Of a DNA stretch of 64,000 nt, positions 3,659 through 32,079 are shown piece after piece (the first letter of the stretch is position 1; each line of letters opens with the position of its first letter). The notes under the pieces were generated by a model. That model saw only the letters and a program-made list of their open reading frames with translations, was not told the origin of the DNA and ran no database searches. The position numbers were made by a program, and so were the translations under genes. Origin of the DNA: Candidatus Levyibacteriota bacterium (GTDB lineage Bacteria > Patescibacteriota > Microgenomatia > Levybacterales > UBA12049); assembly GCA_030651475.1 (NCBI GenBank), contig JAUSEW010000002.1, positions 19,927 through 83,926 of the forward strand, written 5' to 3'.

Positions 3659-5122
3659 ATGCAGAGTTCTTTTGTAATGGTTATTTTTGGTGCAACCGGT
3701 GATTTGGCGCAAAACAAACTTATCCCCTCGCTTTTTTCTCTTTTCAAACAAAAACAACTACCAACAGACTTTTTTATAGTAGGTTTTTCAAGAAGAGAAC
3801 TTAGCGACAGCGATTTTGGATCATATTTCAAAGCTCTTCAAGATAAAGAAGGATGGAATGAGTTTGCCAAACATTTATCTTACCAAAAAGGAAGCTTTGA
3901 TGACATAAGCGGATATTCAGAGCTTATAGATAAACTTAAAAAACTTGACGACAAAATCGGCGCGTGCGTAACTCGCTTTTTTTACCTTGCCACTCCTCCG
4001 GATCATTATCAAAATATTCTTAAGTTTTTGCGGGAAACTAAACTATCGGAGGGGTGCGGTCCCCACTTCGCCCCGCTAAGCGGGGCTTCGAGGAGCAAGC
4101 AAGAGAGTAAGTGGACAAGGATAATTATTGAGAAACCTTTCGGTAAGGATCTAGAGACTGCAAAAGCATTGGATATGAAGCTTTCCGAAGTCTTTGAGGA
4201 GAAACAAATTTTTAGGGTGGATCATTACTTGGGTAAAGAAACAATGCAAAATATTATTGCTTTTAGATTTGCCAATGGAATTTTTGAGCCGGTTTGGAAT
4301 AAAAATTTTATAGACCATGTGCAAATTACTTGGGCGGAGGAACAAGGTGTAAAAGAAAGGGGAAATTTTTTTGACGGAGTAGGATTACTTCGGGATGTCG
4401 GACAAAATCATTTGATGCAGCTTGTTACGGCAGTTGCTATGGAAAGCCCGAAGAGTTTTTCCAAAGAAGGAGTCAGAGATGCAAGAGCAGAGGTTATTAA
4501 AAAAATCCGTTGCGTAGAATCAAGTGAAGTTTCGAAAAATATAGTTAGGGGTCAATATGAAAATTATAGATCGGAAAAAAATGTAGCGAAAAATTCCAAT
4601 ACGGAAACATTCGTTGCTATGAAAATTTTTGTTGATACGGATCGGATGGCAGGCGTGCCTTTTTATATAAGAATGGGTAAAAAAATGCCCAAAAATTTAG
4701 TTGAAATATCTGTTGTTTTTATACAGACTTGCCACATTTTGTTTAAAGAATATGGCTGTCCTGAAATAGGAAATGTTTTGGTGTTTAGAATTCAGCCGGA
4801 TGAAGGAATTAATCTTCGCGTCATCGCAAAAAAGCCCGGCGCCAAGCTTTCTCTAGGAACCGTTAATATGAATTTTTCCTACGAAGATCAATTTAGGACA
4901 AATGGAGCAGATGCGTACGAGAAAGTGCTTCTTGATATTTTTGCAGGCGATCAAATGCTTTTCAATAGATCGGATGAGTTGGAAAGTTCATGGGAATTTA
5001 TAACAAAAATTTTGAAAGGATGGGCTAATTTAGGGGTTGAACCCCTAAAGTATAAGGCGGGAACTTGGGGACCGGAAGAGGCGGAGGCGCTAATCGAAAA
5101 AGACGGGAGGAAGTGGATATAA
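3659..5122 (+). CDS. zwf: glucose-6-phosphate 1-dehydrogenase
   Basis: IFGATGDLA NADP motif, IIEKPFG and RVDHYLGKE active-site motifs. Confidence 0.9.
   Translation: MQSSFVMVIFGATGDLAQNKLIPSLFSLFKQKQLPTDFFIVGFSRRELSDSDFGSYFKALQDKEGWNEFAKHLSYQKGSFDDISGYSELIDKLKKLDDKIGACVTRFFYLATPPDHYQNILKFLRETKLSEGCGPHFAPLSGASRSKQESKWTRIIIEKPFGKDLETAKALDMKLSEVFEEKQIFRVDHYLGKETMQNIIAFRFANGIFEPVWNKNFIDHVQITWAEEQGVKERGNFFDGVGLLRDVGQNHLMQLVTAVAMESPKSFSKEGVRDARAEVIKKIRCVESSEVSKNIVRGQYENYRSEKNVAKNSNTETFVAMKIFVDTDRMAGVPFYIRMGKKMPKNLVEISVVFIQTCHILFKEYGCPEIGNVLVFRIQPDEGINLRVIAKKPGAKLSLGTVNMNFSYEDQFRTNGADAYEKVLLDIFAGDQMLFNRSDELESSWEFITKILKGWANLGVEPLKYKAGTWGPEEAEALIEKDGRKWI
4049..4094. repeat. GC-rich hairpin element inserted in frame in zwf
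   Basis: ~46-bp GC-rich segment in an AT-rich gene with internal stem GCCCCGC-TAA-GCGGGGC. Encodes ~15 extra residues (GCGPHFAPLSGASRS) just before the conserved IIEKPFG. Confidence 0.6.
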
Positions 5123-16539: not shown

Positions 16540-16570
16540 TTATGACCCTTCGACTTCGCTCAGGGTCATA
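16540..16570. repeat. palindromic element (family 1) in prs 5' region
   Basis: TTATGACCCTTCGACTTCGCTCAGGGTCATA lies after a TTGATA-17-TAGAAT promoter. Confidence 0.7.
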
Positions 16571-24314: not shown

Positions 24315-25343
24315 ATGTTCTATCCAAAATATACTATTACCGATCGGCTTCTTGCTAATATAAAAAGAATTAATATCTTAGTAAGCGAATTGAACAATAG
24401 ACGGTTTCCTCATGTTGTTTTATTAGAATTAGAGAGAGTAGCTAGGGAAGTATCTGCTTATGCTTCAACTAGCATTGAGGGTAATCCATTGCCCCTAACA
24501 GAAGTCAAAAAAATTCTTAAATCAACGCCCGTACACATACGAGACAGCGAGAGAGAAATATTAAATTATAATCAAGCACTGCAAGATTTAAATAGAAAAC
24601 TTAAGGAAGAGAGTGCGCGTTTATCCCTTGACCTTATTTTACAAATTCAAAAACAAGTTATGAGGGATTTATTGTCGGAATCTGAAGCAGGAAGACTTCG
24701 AGAAAAACCGGTAGTTGTTAACGATCCGCGAACGGGACAGGTTGTATATTTGCCGCCTGAAATTAAAGACGTAAAACGCCTTATGGAAGATTTGATTTCG
24801 TTTGTCAATTCGAATAGGGAAGCTATTGATTCCCTCATTCTTGCCGGTATTTTCCACAAACAAATGGTTATTATTCATCCCTTTATGGATGGTAACGGAA
24901 GAACAACTCGTCTTGCAACTAAGGTGTTACTTGCTGAAATGGGACTTAACACATTTAATCTCTTTAGCTTTGAAAATTACTATAATAAAAATGTTACAAA
25001 GTATTTCCAAACAGTAGGGGAATTTGGCAATTATTATGATTTAACCGAAGAAATTGACTTTACTTCTTTTCTTGAATATTTTACTGAAGGAATTATCGAT
25101 GAGCTCTTACGAGTAAAAAAAATACTGCCAAAATTTGCGGCAACTCCGCAAACGCAATTACAAACTTATCACTTGAAATTACTTAAGCATATTCGAGAAG
25201 AAGGTTTTATTAACGATAGGAATTATGCTCAATTGACAGATCGAGCTAAAGCAACAAGGACACAAGACTTTAAAAAGCTGCTAAAATTGGGTTTAATTGA
25301 AAAAAAAGGGAAAGGTAAAGCCACATATTATATTTTGAAATAA
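24315..25343 (+). CDS. fic: Fic family protein (class II, AMPylase-type motif)
   Basis: HPFMDGNGRTTR Fic motif, N-terminal inhibitory-helix motif STSIEG ([ST]xxxE[GN]) and C-terminal wHTH-like tail. Confidence 0.85.
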   Translation: MFYPKYTITDRLLANIKRINILVSELNNRRFPHVVLLELERVAREVSAYASTSIEGNPLPLTEVKKILKSTPVHIRDSEREILNYNQALQDLNRKLKEESARLSLDLILQIQKQVMRDLLSESEAGRLREKPVVVNDPRTGQVVYLPPEIKDVKRLMEDLISFVNSNREAIDSLILAGIFHKQMVIIHPFMDGNGRTTRLATKVLLAEMGLNTFNLFSFENYYNKNVTKYFQTVGEFGNYYDLTEEIDFTSFLEYFTEGIIDELLRVKKILPKFAATPQTQLQTYHLKLLKHIREEGFINDRNYAQLTDRAKATRTQDFKKLLKLGLIEKKGKGKATYYILK

Positions 25344-27323: not shown

Positions 27324-28109
27324 ATGACAATGCGACACATTGAAAGCAAAGAAGGATTAGGAGAATTCGTTGGGGATCCCAATGGCGATAAAGCCAAATT
27401 AGCAATAACTCTCATAGAGGGCGCAAGAAAATGGAGGGAGACATTTGGAGATATTTCTTTGCCATCTGTTACAGCTTCAGTTGAAGTAAAACCATTTTCT
27501 CCAGAAGCAGTTACTAATTATTGGCGAACAAAATTACAAGCAGATGGTAAAAGAATAGGACTTTCTATTTCCGTGCCAGATTGTAGTTGGACAGAAGCAG
27601 AAATAAGAAAGCCAATGGTAGATGTTAAAGGAAACGAAGTTCCTTCAATGTTAGTTTATGTTCCGCAAGAGCTTATGGGAAAAGAAGGATTAGTAAGATT
27701 AGGACAGATGTATCCAAAGATGAATAACTGGTCTGTTCAAGAAGACACTAGCGTGCAAAATAGTCCTGATGCAAACAAAAAAGGCGGATGGGTTAAAGTA
27801 GAAGCAATTGTTGATGCCCCAAATCTTAATACTACTCAGGAAGATCTTGAACAGCATGCCAAAGATAAAAAATATTTCGCACAAACATTAAATACTTTTA
27901 TTCTTGCTTCTCAAGCAAATAAAGATTTAACAGGACGTTACTTAGATGAAGGATCGACATGGTCTCGTTTGCTTGGTTCTCGTCGCGCGAGCGGTGTGGT
28001 TCATGCCGACTTCGGTTCGGGTGGGTACTTGTTTGTCGGTTGGGGTCTGGGTCCGCAGGGTCACGGTTCGGGCATAGGCGGGCGTTTTGAAGAAGTGAAG
28101 AAAGCTTAA
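27324..28109 (+). CDS. DGR variable (target) protein, C-terminal CLec/FGE-like variable region
   Basis: C-terminus carries the VR (..GSTWSRLLGSRRASGVVHADFGSGGYLFVGWGLGPQGHGSGIGGRF..). Confidence 0.8.
   Translation: MTMRHIESKEGLGEFVGDPNGDKAKLAITLIEGARKWRETFGDISLPSVTASVEVKPFSPEAVTNYWRTKLQADGKRIGLSISVPDCSWTEAEIRKPMVDVKGNEVPSMLVYVPQELMGKEGLVRLGQMYPKMNNWSVQEDTSVQNSPDANKKGGWVKVEAIVDAPNLNTTQEDLEQHAKDKKYFAQTLNTFILASQANKDLTGRYLDEGSTWSRLLGSRRASGVVHADFGSGGYLFVGWGLGPQGHGSGIGGRFEEVKKA
27971..28097 (+). repeat. DGR variable repeat (VR)
   Basis: 127 bp aligned to the TR without gaps. 26 of 28 mismatches are at TR adenines. Confidence 0.85.
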
Positions 28110-28430
28110 ACCTTTGCCTCTTTGTCCTTTTAGCTCCTTTGACTTTCGTTTTTTTATAGTCCTCCCAAACTATTTTATGCTACAATACTCCTGAGAGTAG
28201 GTTAATACATTCTTAAGCTAAGACTTTAGAATTACCGAAATCCTTGATTTTCAAAATTTTGTTCGATTTCTGTTGTTTATGGATAACAGAAGAATACAAA
28301 AGAAAAACAAGACACTTCTTGCCTAATGCTTGCGAAGATGTCCTGAGCTTGTCGAAGGACTACTTCCAAATAAAATACAACAGTAAGAGTAATCAAACTG
28401 TGGTGGTAATTGATGGCATAAGGCAAAAAA

Positions 28431-28557
28431 GCTTGGTTCTCGTAACGAGAGCAATGTGGTTAATGCCAACTTCAATTCGGATGGTAACTTGAATGTCAAT
28501 TGGAATCTGAATCCGCAGAATCACAATTCGAACATAGGCGGGCGTTTTGGAGAAGTA
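28431..28557 (+). repeat. DGR template repeat (TR)
   Basis: AAY-codon-rich (Asn) copy: ..NVVNANFNSDGNLNVNWNLNPQNHNSNIGGRF.. Confidence 0.85.
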
Positions 28558-28564
28558 GCTTGTT

Positions 28565-28861
28565 TTAAATTTGAGTTAATGATCTTTTCCATCCTCCAAG
28601 CATCCTGCCAACTTCTTGGAGGAATTGTTCTAACTGTAGATATTTATTATTGTCAAGAGATTGAACATCTTTAGCCAGTCTGAGCAATATCTTTAAAAGA
28701 TCTAATGAGATGATAGCTTTTTCAAGATAAAGAAGCTTTTTGTCTTTCTGACTTGTTCCTGCCATAAGGATTAGTTCGAAAATTGTAAGCGTTAGACTAT
28801 CCAGCTTTTGTCCTAAAGTGTAGCGGTCTTTTTTGGGGAAAAGCTTCAGGTATCCATACAA
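28565..28861 (-). CDS. avd: accessory variability determinant (Avd), four-helix-bundle family
   Basis: C-terminal EVGRMLGGWKRS matches Bordetella phage Avd EVGRILGSWIAR, and FPKKDRYTLGQKL is the helix-2 signature. TTG start. The frame stays open upstream through the (AC)n tract. Confidence 0.75.
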   Translation of the reverse strand: MYGYLKLFPKKDRYTLGQKLDSLTLTIFELILMAGTSQKDKKLLYLEKAIISLDLLKILLRLAKDVQSLDNNKYLQLEQFLQEVGRMLGGWKRSLTQI

Positions 28862-28911
28862 TAATTTGTAGAAATCATAGAATCTTTGAATAAGAGGTAT
28901 GTCAAAGTCAG

Positions 28912-28932
28912 GTGTGTGTGTGTGTGTGTGTG
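28912..28932. repeat. (GT)10 dinucleotide microsatellite between divergent avd and RT
   Basis: GTGTGTGTGTGTGTGTGTGTG. Confidence 0.9.
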
Positions 28933-28947
28933 AATATCTTTATCTGT

Positions 28948-30012
28948 ATGCATATTGATACATTCGACGGTGCCGAGCACCGCTCAGTATCAACCCTGAG
29001 CGAAGTCGAACGGGTTGATTATTCCAAGCTTATCTCAATAGAAAATTTATTTCAAGCATGGAAAGAGTTTAGAAAAGGAAAAGCTAAGCGTTTTGATGTT
29101 GCGGAATTTGAAAGGAATTTAGAAGATAATTTATTTGAATTACATTTAAAATTGAAAAATAAAAGTTATAAACATGGAGGTTACGAATCATTTTATGTTC
29201 ACGACCCAAAACAGCGGCATATTCATAAAGCAAGTGTTATAGATAGGGTAGTTCATCATCTGCTTTACACCTTTTTGTATAAGTTGTTTGACAGAGTATT
29301 TATTTATGATTCCTATTCCTGCAGACTTAATAAAGGAACCCATAAAGGAGTAAAGAGATTAGCGGAACTTACAAGAAAAGTTTCTAAAAACTATACAAGA
29401 CCTTGTTTTGCTTTAAAATTAGATATTAAAAAGTTTTTTGCCAGCGTTGACCATGAAGTTTTACTTACCTTACTTAAGAAAAAGGTTAAAGATAAAGATA
29501 TTATTTGGTTGTTAGTACAGATAATCAATAGTTTTTACTCGGATAAAGGAGAAGGGAAAGGAATGCCTCTTGGCAATTTAACCAGTCAGGTTTTTGCCAA
29601 TATTTACCTCAATGAACTTGACCAGTTTACAAAACATAAGTTAAAAGTAAAATATTATCTTCGTTATGCAGATGATTTTCTGTTTTTATCAAAGAATAAA
29701 GAGTTATTGTGTAAATATATTGACGTATTAAGACAATTCCTGAGCAACGGACTTAAACTTGAACTTCATCCTAATAAGATTATCTTTCGTAAATTAGAAT
29801 GGGGAATTGATTTCTTAGGCTACATAGTTTTACCTCATTATATTTTGCCAAGGACAAAAACTAGAAAAAGGATTTTTAAAAAATTAAAGGAAAATGTTGG
29901 TTCAGAAAACTTTAATCAATCCTTGCAATCCTATTTAGGATATTTAGGGCATGCCAGCAGTTTTAAAATAGCCCAATCTCTACTTTACTTTTACCAAAAA
30001 TATAGCTTATGA
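28948..30012 (+). CDS. DGR reverse transcriptase
   Basis: N-terminus ENLFQAWKEFRKGK resembles Brt. GNLTSQVFANIYLNELD carries the DGR SQ motif. RYADDFLFL is the YxDD motif. Start could instead be GTG 28912. Confidence 0.85.
   Translation: MHIDTFDGAEHRSVSTLSEVERVDYSKLISIENLFQAWKEFRKGKAKRFDVAEFERNLEDNLFELHLKLKNKSYKHGGYESFYVHDPKQRHIHKASVIDRVVHHLLYTFLYKLFDRVFIYDSYSCRLNKGTHKGVKRLAELTRKVSKNYTRPCFALKLDIKKFFASVDHEVLLTLLKKKVKDKDIIWLLVQIINSFYSDKGEGKGMPLGNLTSQVFANIYLNELDQFTKHKLKVKYYLRYADDFLFLSKNKELLCKYIDVLRQFLSNGLKLELHPNKIIFRKLEWGIDFLGYIVLPHYILPRTKTRKRIFKKLKENVGSENFNQSLQSYLGYLGHASSFKIAQSLLYFYQKYSL
28990..29018. repeat. palindromic element (family 1, inverted orientation) within the RT 5' region
   Basis: TCAACCCTGAGCGAAGTCGAACGGGTTGA. 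Confidence 0.65.
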
Positions 30013-31447: not shown

Positions 31448-31690
31448 ATGGAACAAACAGTAATGCAAGTTGGCAATTCTTTAGCAGTCACTTTACCCAA
31501 GCAATTTGTTGACGCTAAAAAAATAAAAGCAGGACAAAAAATGCTTGTGGATGCAGACAATGATCTCTCTGTGGTTCAAATAAGAACAAAGAATTCTAAA
31601 GCCTCCAAGATTACTCCCGAATTTAAGAACTGGCTTGACGCATTCAATACCCGCTACAAGACAGCGCTTACTGAGCTTGCAAAAAAGTGA
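31448..31690 (+). CDS. AbrB/MazE-family antitoxin
   Basis: VGNSLAVTLPK swapped-hairpin motif. Overlaps doc by 4 nt. Confidence 0.7.
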   Translation: MEQTVMQVGNSLAVTLPKQFVDAKKIKAGQKMLVDADNDLSVVQIRTKNSKASKITPEFKNWLDAFNTRYKTALTELAKK

Positions 31691-32079
31691 GACAGACTAA
31701 GCACCTTATCCTCGACGAAGTAATTGCGATACACGATAGCATGATCGAACAGTATGGAGGAAGTTTCGGAATTCGCGATATTGGACTACTTCAGTCAGCG
31801 ATTAGCAGGCCGCAGGCATCATTTGGGGGCGTTGATCTTTATCCAACTATATTTGATAAGGCTGCCGCTCTTTTTCATTCATTGATGTTCAACCATGCTT
31901 TCATGGATGGAAACAAGAGGACAACCATGACAACAACTGCCAGATTCCTTGCAATAAATGGTTACTTGGTTGTAGTAGAACAAAGAGAATTTGTAGATTT
32001 TCCTCTTCGAGTGGAGAATAAACACCTCTCTCTTGGGGAAATCGTCGCTTGGCTGAAGAAACATACAAAGAAGATGTAA
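31687..32079 (+). CDS. doc: Doc toxin (Fic-fold kinase)
   Basis: HAFMDGNKRT Doc motif, 130 aa. Confidence 0.8.
   Translation: MRQTKHLILDEVIAIHDSMIEQYGGSFGIRDIGLLQSAISRPQASFGGVDLYPTIFDKAAALFHSLMFNHAFMDGNKRTTMTTTARFLAINGYLVVVEQREFVDFPLRVENKHLSLGEIVAWLKKHTKKM

Follow-up and report, generated by a model that had tools for sequence, protein, structure and literature searches.

The DGR described here raises a question about its avd gene, which runs antisense between the template repeat (TR) and the reverse transcriptase (RT) gene: where does translation begin, if the sequence encoding the first helix of Avd is preceded by no canonical start codon? A preliminary description of this DNA had left three explanations side by side, namely (i) initiation at a non-canonical codon, (ii) fusion of reading frames dependent on a dinucleotide repeat, and (iii) a truncated Avd. 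The results presented below argue for a form of the second. We consider, with a probability of roughly 0.78, that avd is a phase-variable (contingency) gene and that the allele in the window (the whole stretch of DNA that was analyzed, 64,000 nt) has been caught in its OFF phase.

The DGR of the window and the reading frame of avd

The features of the locus are listed below in window coordinates.

27324..28109, + strand: DGR target (variable protein) gene, an ORF of 261 aa with the variable repeat (VR) at its 3′ end
27971..28096, + strand: VR, a 126-nt match to TR, inside the target gene
28349..28376, + strand: sigma-70-like promoter match about 55 nt upstream of TR, a weak candidate for the start of the TR transcript
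28431..28556, + strand: TR, pairing with VR
28565..28567, − strand: avd stop codon, 8 nt from the TR end
28565..28861, − strand: avd as given by the ORF caller (TTG start, 98 aa)
28565..28911, − strand: avd body (post-repeat residues PDFD, helices 1–4 and stop), delimited by the reading frame, Pfam bAvd and the structure model
28846..28848, − strand: TGA closing the 35-codon out-of-frame peptide that would be read from the proposed ATG (OFF allele)
28847..28900, − strand: coding sequence of avd helix 1 (residues 5–22 of the extended sequence), with the TTG (28861–28859) inside it
28912..28932, + strand: putative frame-setting simple sequence repeat found by TRF, (GT)10.5, read in the avd sense as (CA)10.5 and coding for His-Thr repeats
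28933..28953, − strand: proposed avd start codon (28953–28951) and leader MHTDKDI, matching in-frame homologs
28948..28953, both strands: palindrome ATGCAT, with the RT start codon (+) and the proposed avd start codon (−) back to back
28948..30012, + strand: DGR RT gene, 354 aa from the ATG (Pfam RVT_1, 1.1e-22)

The window holds a complete DGR. TR and VR differ at 27 positions of the 126-nt pair, and 25 of these are adenines in TR. The adjoining RT is of the DGR type, as indicated by its Pfam RVT_1 match, by its identity of 57–63% to the RTs of the closest CPR DGR loci and by its translation, which includes GMPLGNLTSQ; we take the PLGNLTSQ motif to be a mark of DGR RTs. The RT ORF stays open from a GTG at 28912, within the repeat. 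A Pfam search with the target gene gave no match. The divergence of VR from TR, together with VR differences between otherwise identical contigs of relatives, suggests that mutagenic retrohoming may be ongoing.

The avd frame upstream of the TTG at 28861 is open through the repeat (...R, stop, RYSHTHTHTPDFDIPLIQRFYDFYKLL, then YGYL), and the stretch RYSHTHTHTPDFDIPLIQRFYDFYKLL contains no ATG, GTG or TTG in that frame. This stretch is real Avd sequence. The match to bAvd (PF22296; E=3.3e-19; 69.8 bits, cut-off 40) begins at residue 8 of the upstream-extended protein and covers profile positions 4–106 of 107, and the profile is matched over its full length only if the residues upstream of the TTG are included. 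The AlphaFold model of the extended Avd (pLDDT 92.8) has helices at residues 5–22, 27–53, 56–82 and 88–113, and a Foldseek comparison placed this four-helix bundle on the Bordetella phage Avd structures 4dwl and 8ub7 with a TM score of 0.84–0.86 and an rmsd of 1.3–1.5 Å. The TTG is residue 18 of the extended sequence; on the model, its product would be without 13 of the 18 residues that form helix 1, a helix which the modelled bundle indicates is needed for the Avd fold. The calculated pI of the protein is 9.2, beside a mean of 9.5 for the bAvd family (PMC5758913). An exact-protein look-up of the 98-aa ORF found it not on record. The preliminary description had read the same upstream segment as helix 1 lacking a start codon, and the open frame, the bAvd profile and the AlphaFold model all bear this out.

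The missing start is accounted for by an ATG that lies upstream of the (CA)10.5 tract in another frame. Reading on the − strand from the ATG at 28953, the codons HTDKDI are followed, 21 nt after the ATG, by the tract, read without interruption as HTHTHTH, and then by sequence which misses helix 1 and ends at the TGA (28846–28848) after 35 codons; at the present repeat length the avd body is in a frame other than that of the ATG. Reconstruction revealed that the loss of one CA unit (9.5 units) or the gain of two (12.5 units) yields a full four-helix Avd of 128 or 130 aa, respectively, whereas the gain of a single unit does not restore the frame. The 128-aa product begins MHTDKDIHTHTHTPDFDIPLIQ... 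The arrangement is that of phase-variable genes, in which the start codon is followed in frame by a perfect repeat whose unit length is not divisible by three. Besides one (AAGA)3, the (GT)10.5 tract is the unique non-A/T simple repeat of its class in the 64 kb. The proposed ATG is not preceded by any visible Shine-Dalgarno-like sequence.

Protein databases contain full-length homologs that start M..KDIHTHTHT..(D/E)F.DIPLIQ with a varying number of His-Thr pairs (e.g. MSSLHKDIHTHTLADFDIPLIQ, MQTSKEIHTHTHTHTLLMFDIPLL, MNTSKEIHTHTHTPIAGFDIPIF and MQTHKDIHTHTHTAPTVFDVPII), while many further Avd homologs are annotated as stumps of 91–100 aa. The leader MHTDKDI matches the in-frame N-termini of the homologs P0001, P0007, P0013, P0037 and P0040, as well as those of the related loci L060 and L075. 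The shared N-terminus and the frame arithmetic therefore identify the avd of the window as an out-of-frame allele whose start codon most probably lies beyond the dinucleotide repeat. Among the three initial explanations, it is thus repeat-dependent frame fusion that gains support from the ATG at 28953, the effect of −1 or +2 units and the N-termini of homologs.

Gene order and the avd/RT start region in related loci

We gathered 160 related loci from metagenomes and GTDB genomes, the named relatives being CPR/Patescibacteria (e.g. Daviesbacteria, Levybacteria, Curtissbacteria and Microgenomates). An RT match was obtained in 146 related loci, and in every one of them RT is on the other strand, upstream of avd. 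For TR, 124 unique loci were testable; in 104 of them, a TR whose mismatches are biased towards adenines begins about 0–140 nt (median about 20 nt) from the avd stop codon, on the opposite strand, and in most of these 104 the VR lies about 450–600 nt beyond the TR.

The initial observation that avd is encoded on the opposite strand between TR and RT, with its stop codon 8 nt from the TR end, agrees with the coordinates (the gap being 28557–28564). Its interpretation as a departure from the canonical DGR was not sustained by the comparison with the architectures of related DGRs. The order TR-(avd)-RT is the published architecture B3, which accounts for 90% of a set of CPR DGRs (Wu, Gingery, et al., Nucleic Acids Res 2018, PMC5758913), and the window, in which avd occupies the reverse strand between TR and RT, has the same order and strands of target/VR, TR, avd and RT, without any difference in layout. 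Since this architecture is published and was present in all 146 related loci with RT, we rejected the antisense avd as a novelty. Wu et al. (PMC5758913) make no mention of repeats in avd or of missing avd start codons.

In comparison with the DGR of Bordetella phage BPP-1 (avd-TR-brt, architecture B1), the window shares the ..GN..SQ motif of RT, the adenine-specific TR/VR pair and a basic four-helix Avd (bAvd forms a pentamer in the phage system), but its avd is inverted, converges on TR and is arranged head to head with RT so that the start codons overlap. The Avd-binding RNA segment of BPP-1 lies 3′ of TR; by analogy, its counterpart in the window would be antisense to the 3′ part of avd. 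We know of no simple repeat in the avd gene of BPP-1.

The ATG codons of avd and RT share the ATGCAT at 28948–28953, and the same ATGCAT is found in the closest relatives L161, L162 and L164. Most relatives have the two start codons overlapping or at most about 20 nt apart, although automated calls of RT starts are noisy. There is therefore no intergenic region, and any upstream signals of each gene must be located inside the other. Within 28050–29150, a promoter scan found one sigma-70-like site versus 2.9 expected by chance (the promoter rules of the host may differ), with no promoter-like site near the avd/RT start region, and no terminator was detected in the same interval. RNAalifold predicted no pairs in the TR 3′ flank (antisense to avd) of 39 sequences, the alignment of which is gappy at the TR end.

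Frame-shifting repeats in avd and RT of related DGRs

The 5′ site of avd, within 130 nt 5′ of helix 1, was analyzed in 133 unique loci, including the window. A perfect, frame-shifting simple repeat with a unit of 1, 2, 4 or 5 nt was found in 79 of these loci (59%). Seven unit types occur: poly-C (encoding PPP), CA (HTHT), AG (RERE), AGAC (RQTD), AATC (INQS), GGACA (GQDRT) and AACAG (NRTEQ); poly-C tracts of 8–13 nt are common. Repeats with a unit of 3 or 6 nt were absent from this site in all 133 loci. The local density of repeats is 4.56 per kb, well above the background of 0.25 per kb elsewhere in the loci (0.07 without A/T runs).

All 79 repeat loci have an ATG at most 50 nt upstream with a frame open to the repeat, as compared with 41% of random positions in the same loci, and a start codon between the repeat and helix 1 is absent from all 79. 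In the repeat-free loci, on the other hand, an ordinary ATG is present in frame 3–15 codons upstream of helix 1 (51 of 54). Relative to the upstream ATG, 22 of the 79 loci are ON, 28 are OFF+1 and 29 are OFF+2.

The preliminary description had allowed for helix 1 being genuinely absent from this clade. Instead, OFF, ON and repeat-free loci retain its invariant residues to an equal degree (P6, Y12, F14 and Y15 being conserved in all three classes), while the codon of Ile5, with which the helix starts, is a mixture of ATT, ATA and ATC without preference. Since the helix-1 residues are kept and an internal stop is present in just 1 of the 57 OFF loci, the out-of-frame genes do not, judging from their sequences, appear to be decaying pseudogenes.

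L104 is an exception: at about 3935–3990, a stop codon comes after its (CA)28 tract, and helix 1 is directly preceded by an ATG of its own (stop, LYMDIPIF). A repeat can therefore exist outside the avd reading frame.

A second repeat site was found inside the RT gene of 19 unique loci, all of which lack the avd repeat. In the RT sense these are (AG)7–27 or poly-G9–12 tracts, situated just before the motif G-[IL]-P-I-G-N-x-T-S-Q, about 575–657 nt upstream of avd helix 1:

RT (AG)n, (CT)n on the avd strand: L040, L048, L059, L063, L065, L073, L080, L092, L094, L100, L103, L143, L151, L159
RT poly-G, poly-C on the avd strand: L107, L110, L112, L120, L140

The RT frame is intact in 7 of the 19, shifted in 11 and unclear in one, calls near contig ends being noisy, and in one sample series the RT repeat has 7 units in five contigs and 8 in a sixth. 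None of the 133 loci has both an avd and an RT repeat. A frame-setting repeat in one gene or the other is present in 98 of the 133 loci (74%), the share of RT being 14%.

At the corresponding position the RT of the window has a purine-rich, non-repetitive stretch and no repeat. It carries about 22 extra N-terminal codons (TFDGAEHRSVSTLSEVERV..., about 28958–29020, + strand) which are absent from L161–L164. This segment is G+C-rich and contains CTGAGCGAAGTCGAA, a second exact copy of which is located at 16549–16563 (−); it may be a small inserted repeat element.

Variation in repeat length was analyzed in sister groups, defined by an identity of 99.5–100% in the 400-nt flanks on both sides of the repeat. 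Seven such groups differ in repeat length:

L004 vs L003/L082, GGACA-type: 42 nt (ON) vs 37 nt (OFF)
L023 vs L022, CA: 27 nt (ON) vs 29 nt (OFF)
L039 vs L035, poly-C: C8 (ON) vs C9 (OFF)
L060 vs L061, CA: 23 nt (ON) vs 21 nt (OFF)
L026/L027/L090 vs L028, poly-C: C10 vs C11
L047/L056 vs L055, poly-C: C10 vs C9
L031 vs L153, GGACA-type: 38 nt vs 43 nt

The sister pairs were then compared over their full shared length of 2–7 kb. The repeat is the sole difference in L022/L023 and L026/L028, and L003/L004 differ in the repeat and one VR base. In L031/L153 and L060/L061 the VR differs too, by 7 and 11 positions, respectively, while L035/L039, L047/L055 and L060/L061 have further differences elsewhere, some of them clustered in the latter two pairs. 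From these alignments, the repeat and the VR appear to be the two recurrent variable spots of sister loci. Repeat-number polymorphism with both ON and OFF alleles is a feature of the relatives, and both states are represented in five clusters formed at 90% identity.

Some substitution clusters are situated outside the known VR: at +2507 to +2591 from the avd stop codon in L060 vs L061, and at +1382 to +1392 and +3803 to +3812 in L047 vs L055. These may be second VRs or target genes of the same DGR.

The avd genes closest to that of the window (L161–L164; 90–92% aa identity) are also out of frame. In the lineage of the window, the sole evidence of polymorphism is provided by L162 and L163, which encode the same Avd protein and are 3 CA units apart. 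The CA tract in the 5′ region of the L161 avd is short and interrupted (CACACACACGCACAG) and out of frame, and this allele may be locked OFF.

A proposed switch in the DGR machinery and the competing explanations

How such a switch might work can be outlined from these data. In ON alleles, translation would proceed from the ATG (28953, − strand, in the window) through the His-Thr tract encoded by (CA)n into helix 1. Slipped-strand mispairing at the tract would change the number of units at high frequency and reversibly, and OFF alleles would make no functional Avd. The RT-Avd complex and the DGR RNA are described as necessary and sufficient for cDNA synthesis in the Bordetella phage DGR (PMC6182149); by analogy with that system, which is distant from the DGR of the window, Avd would be needed together with RT for cDNA synthesis from TR. 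If slippage is reversible, if OFF alleles yield no Avd and if Avd is required, slips would therefore toggle targeted mutagenesis, each of them switching mutagenic retrohoming into 27324–28109 on or off in a subpopulation. The VR-TR-(avd)-RT layout would be the normal CPR arrangement and no part of the switch, and with the repeat only 15 nt upstream of the RT start, an additional effect on RT expression is possible.

As the three phases are nearly equally frequent, consensus alleles do not seem to be held ON, which fits a hypermutation that is costly and only occasionally useful. The same ratio is the main weakness of the phase-variation reading, since it would also be given by a repeat that is irrelevant to translation. 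The lack of an alternative start, the restriction to frame-shifting units, the matching N-termini of ON alleles and the second site in RT argue that the repeat is not irrelevant.

Two alternatives concern the missing start and the frame break of the window. The TTG is the sole canonical start in the avd frame, and products of 91–100 aa are called in many databases, which would suit a functional 98-aa protein initiated at TTG 28861, or a start at a non-canonical codon near helix 1. However, the TTG product would be without 13 of 18 helix-1 residues of the four-helix bundle, the four conserved residues of this helix are kept in all classes, the Ile5 codon is free to vary, repeat-free relatives use an ordinary ATG upstream of helix 1 (51 of 54) and in ON relatives the frame extends from the upstream ATG across the repeat. 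On the grounds of helix-1 conservation, the structure model and the free use of Ile5 codons, both non-canonical initiation and a functional truncated Avd were rejected as very improbable, which leaves two of the three initial explanations unsupported. Repeats are also error-prone in sequencing, and the shortened, interrupted tract of the close relative L161 is itself out of frame, as might be expected if the break were an assembly or sequencing error within the repeat or the mark of a decaying pseudogene. This is harder still to believe, because the tracts are perfect, the same repeat lengths recur across separate records (L015/L016/L017, L026/L027/L090 and L061/L071), independent repeat types occupy the same avd site, and an internal stop accompanies only one of the 57 out-of-frame loci among the 79.

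The remaining alternatives assign the repeat another role. It might mainly control RT, through the 5′ untranslated region, ribosome binding or promoter spacing on the + strand, the avd frame being a by-product. The repeat of the window stops 15 nt short of the RT ATG; the avd and RT starts of most relatives overlap or are no more than about 20 nt apart, so that the repeat is always just upstream of the RT start, and in several poly-C loci the G run of the RT strand is 2–14 nt from the RT ATG, which is about the position of a Shine-Dalgarno sequence and might act as one. The equal frequency of the three phases and the long repeat kept outside the avd frame in L104 point in the same direction. 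Such control leaves unexplained, however, why all 79 repeat loci lack a start between the repeat and helix 1 while repeat-free loci have one, why only frame-shifting unit sizes are used, and why a second set of DGRs carries its repeat midway through the coding sequence of RT. We regard it as unlikely to be the main role of the repeat; the two readings are not exclusive, as the repeat length decides whether full-length Avd is encoded regardless of any role in RT expression.

Transcriptional slippage on long homopolymers is established in bacteria, and Avd might be made at a low level from all alleles by slippage of RNA polymerase or the ribosome, with the repeat damping expression. The poly-C tracts of 8–13 nt at the avd site and the equal abundance of OFF+1 and OFF+2 would be in keeping with this, but slippage is poorly documented for the 4- and 5-nt units which are used at the same site, and the repeat length differs at the DNA level between otherwise identical contigs, which implies heritable switching in any case. 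We consider this less probable than a main role in RT control, and a phase-variable avd remains the preferred reading.

A phase-variable avd would have much in common with the SSR contingency loci (Neisseria opa/pilC, Haemophilus lic and mod, and the poly-G genes of Campylobacter), in which the start codon is likewise followed closely by a perfect repeat, the unit of which is not divisible by three. Tracts of slippage-prone length, ON and OFF states among near-identical strains and many unit types at one position are further points of resemblance. Classical contingency loci control surface structures or restriction-modification methyltransferases (phasevarions), whereas avd encodes a part of a hypermutation machine, so that one stochastic switch would gate another diversity generator; their hosts are pathogens, whereas the hosts of avd repeats are uncultured CPR bacteria. 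The (TA)n tract of Haemophilus influenzae hifA/hifB is likewise a dinucleotide repeat between divergent genes that could affect both, but it is located between −35 and −10 and alters transcription, while the repeat of the window is inside the avd frame and would set the frame of translation.

With less assurance than for the window itself, we lean towards the view that most CPR/Patescibacteria DGRs are gated by a simple-repeat switch in their own machinery (avd in 59%, RT in 14%), with at least seven repeat types recruited independently to the avd site and about two thirds of the assembled alleles OFF, and that hypermutation is phase-variable in these lineages. Apparently, the switch is widespread among CPR DGRs, arose convergently and has gone undescribed. 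A search of the full-text literature for DGR together with terms for phase variation and repeats found no report of repeats in avd or in a DGR RT, though an earlier description is possible.

Little is known of how DGRs are regulated, and hypermutation without control should be costly. For the lineages in which the largest share of known DGRs is found, a stochastic switch in avd or RT that is heritable and reversible would be a simple answer: superimposed on a diversity generator, it would confine the cost of hypermutation to a subpopulation. Populations are then predicted to contain mixed repeat-length alleles, with an ON fraction that tracks VR heterogeneity. Many of the 'truncated' avd and RT genes in databases would be OFF alleles, gene callers would systematically mis-start or truncate such genes, and DGR surveys requiring intact genes would under-count these elements or class OFF alleles as defective. 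In any reconstitution of a CPR DGR, the repeat length would have to be chosen deliberately.

Elsewhere in the window, two ORFs on the + strand carry Fic/Doc-type motifs, as seen in the ORF translations: HPFMDGNGRTTR in the ORF at 24315–25343, and HAFMDGNKRTT in a second ORF within 31448–32079. The latter is preceded by a small ORF (31448–31690), and the pair looks like a toxin-antitoxin system.
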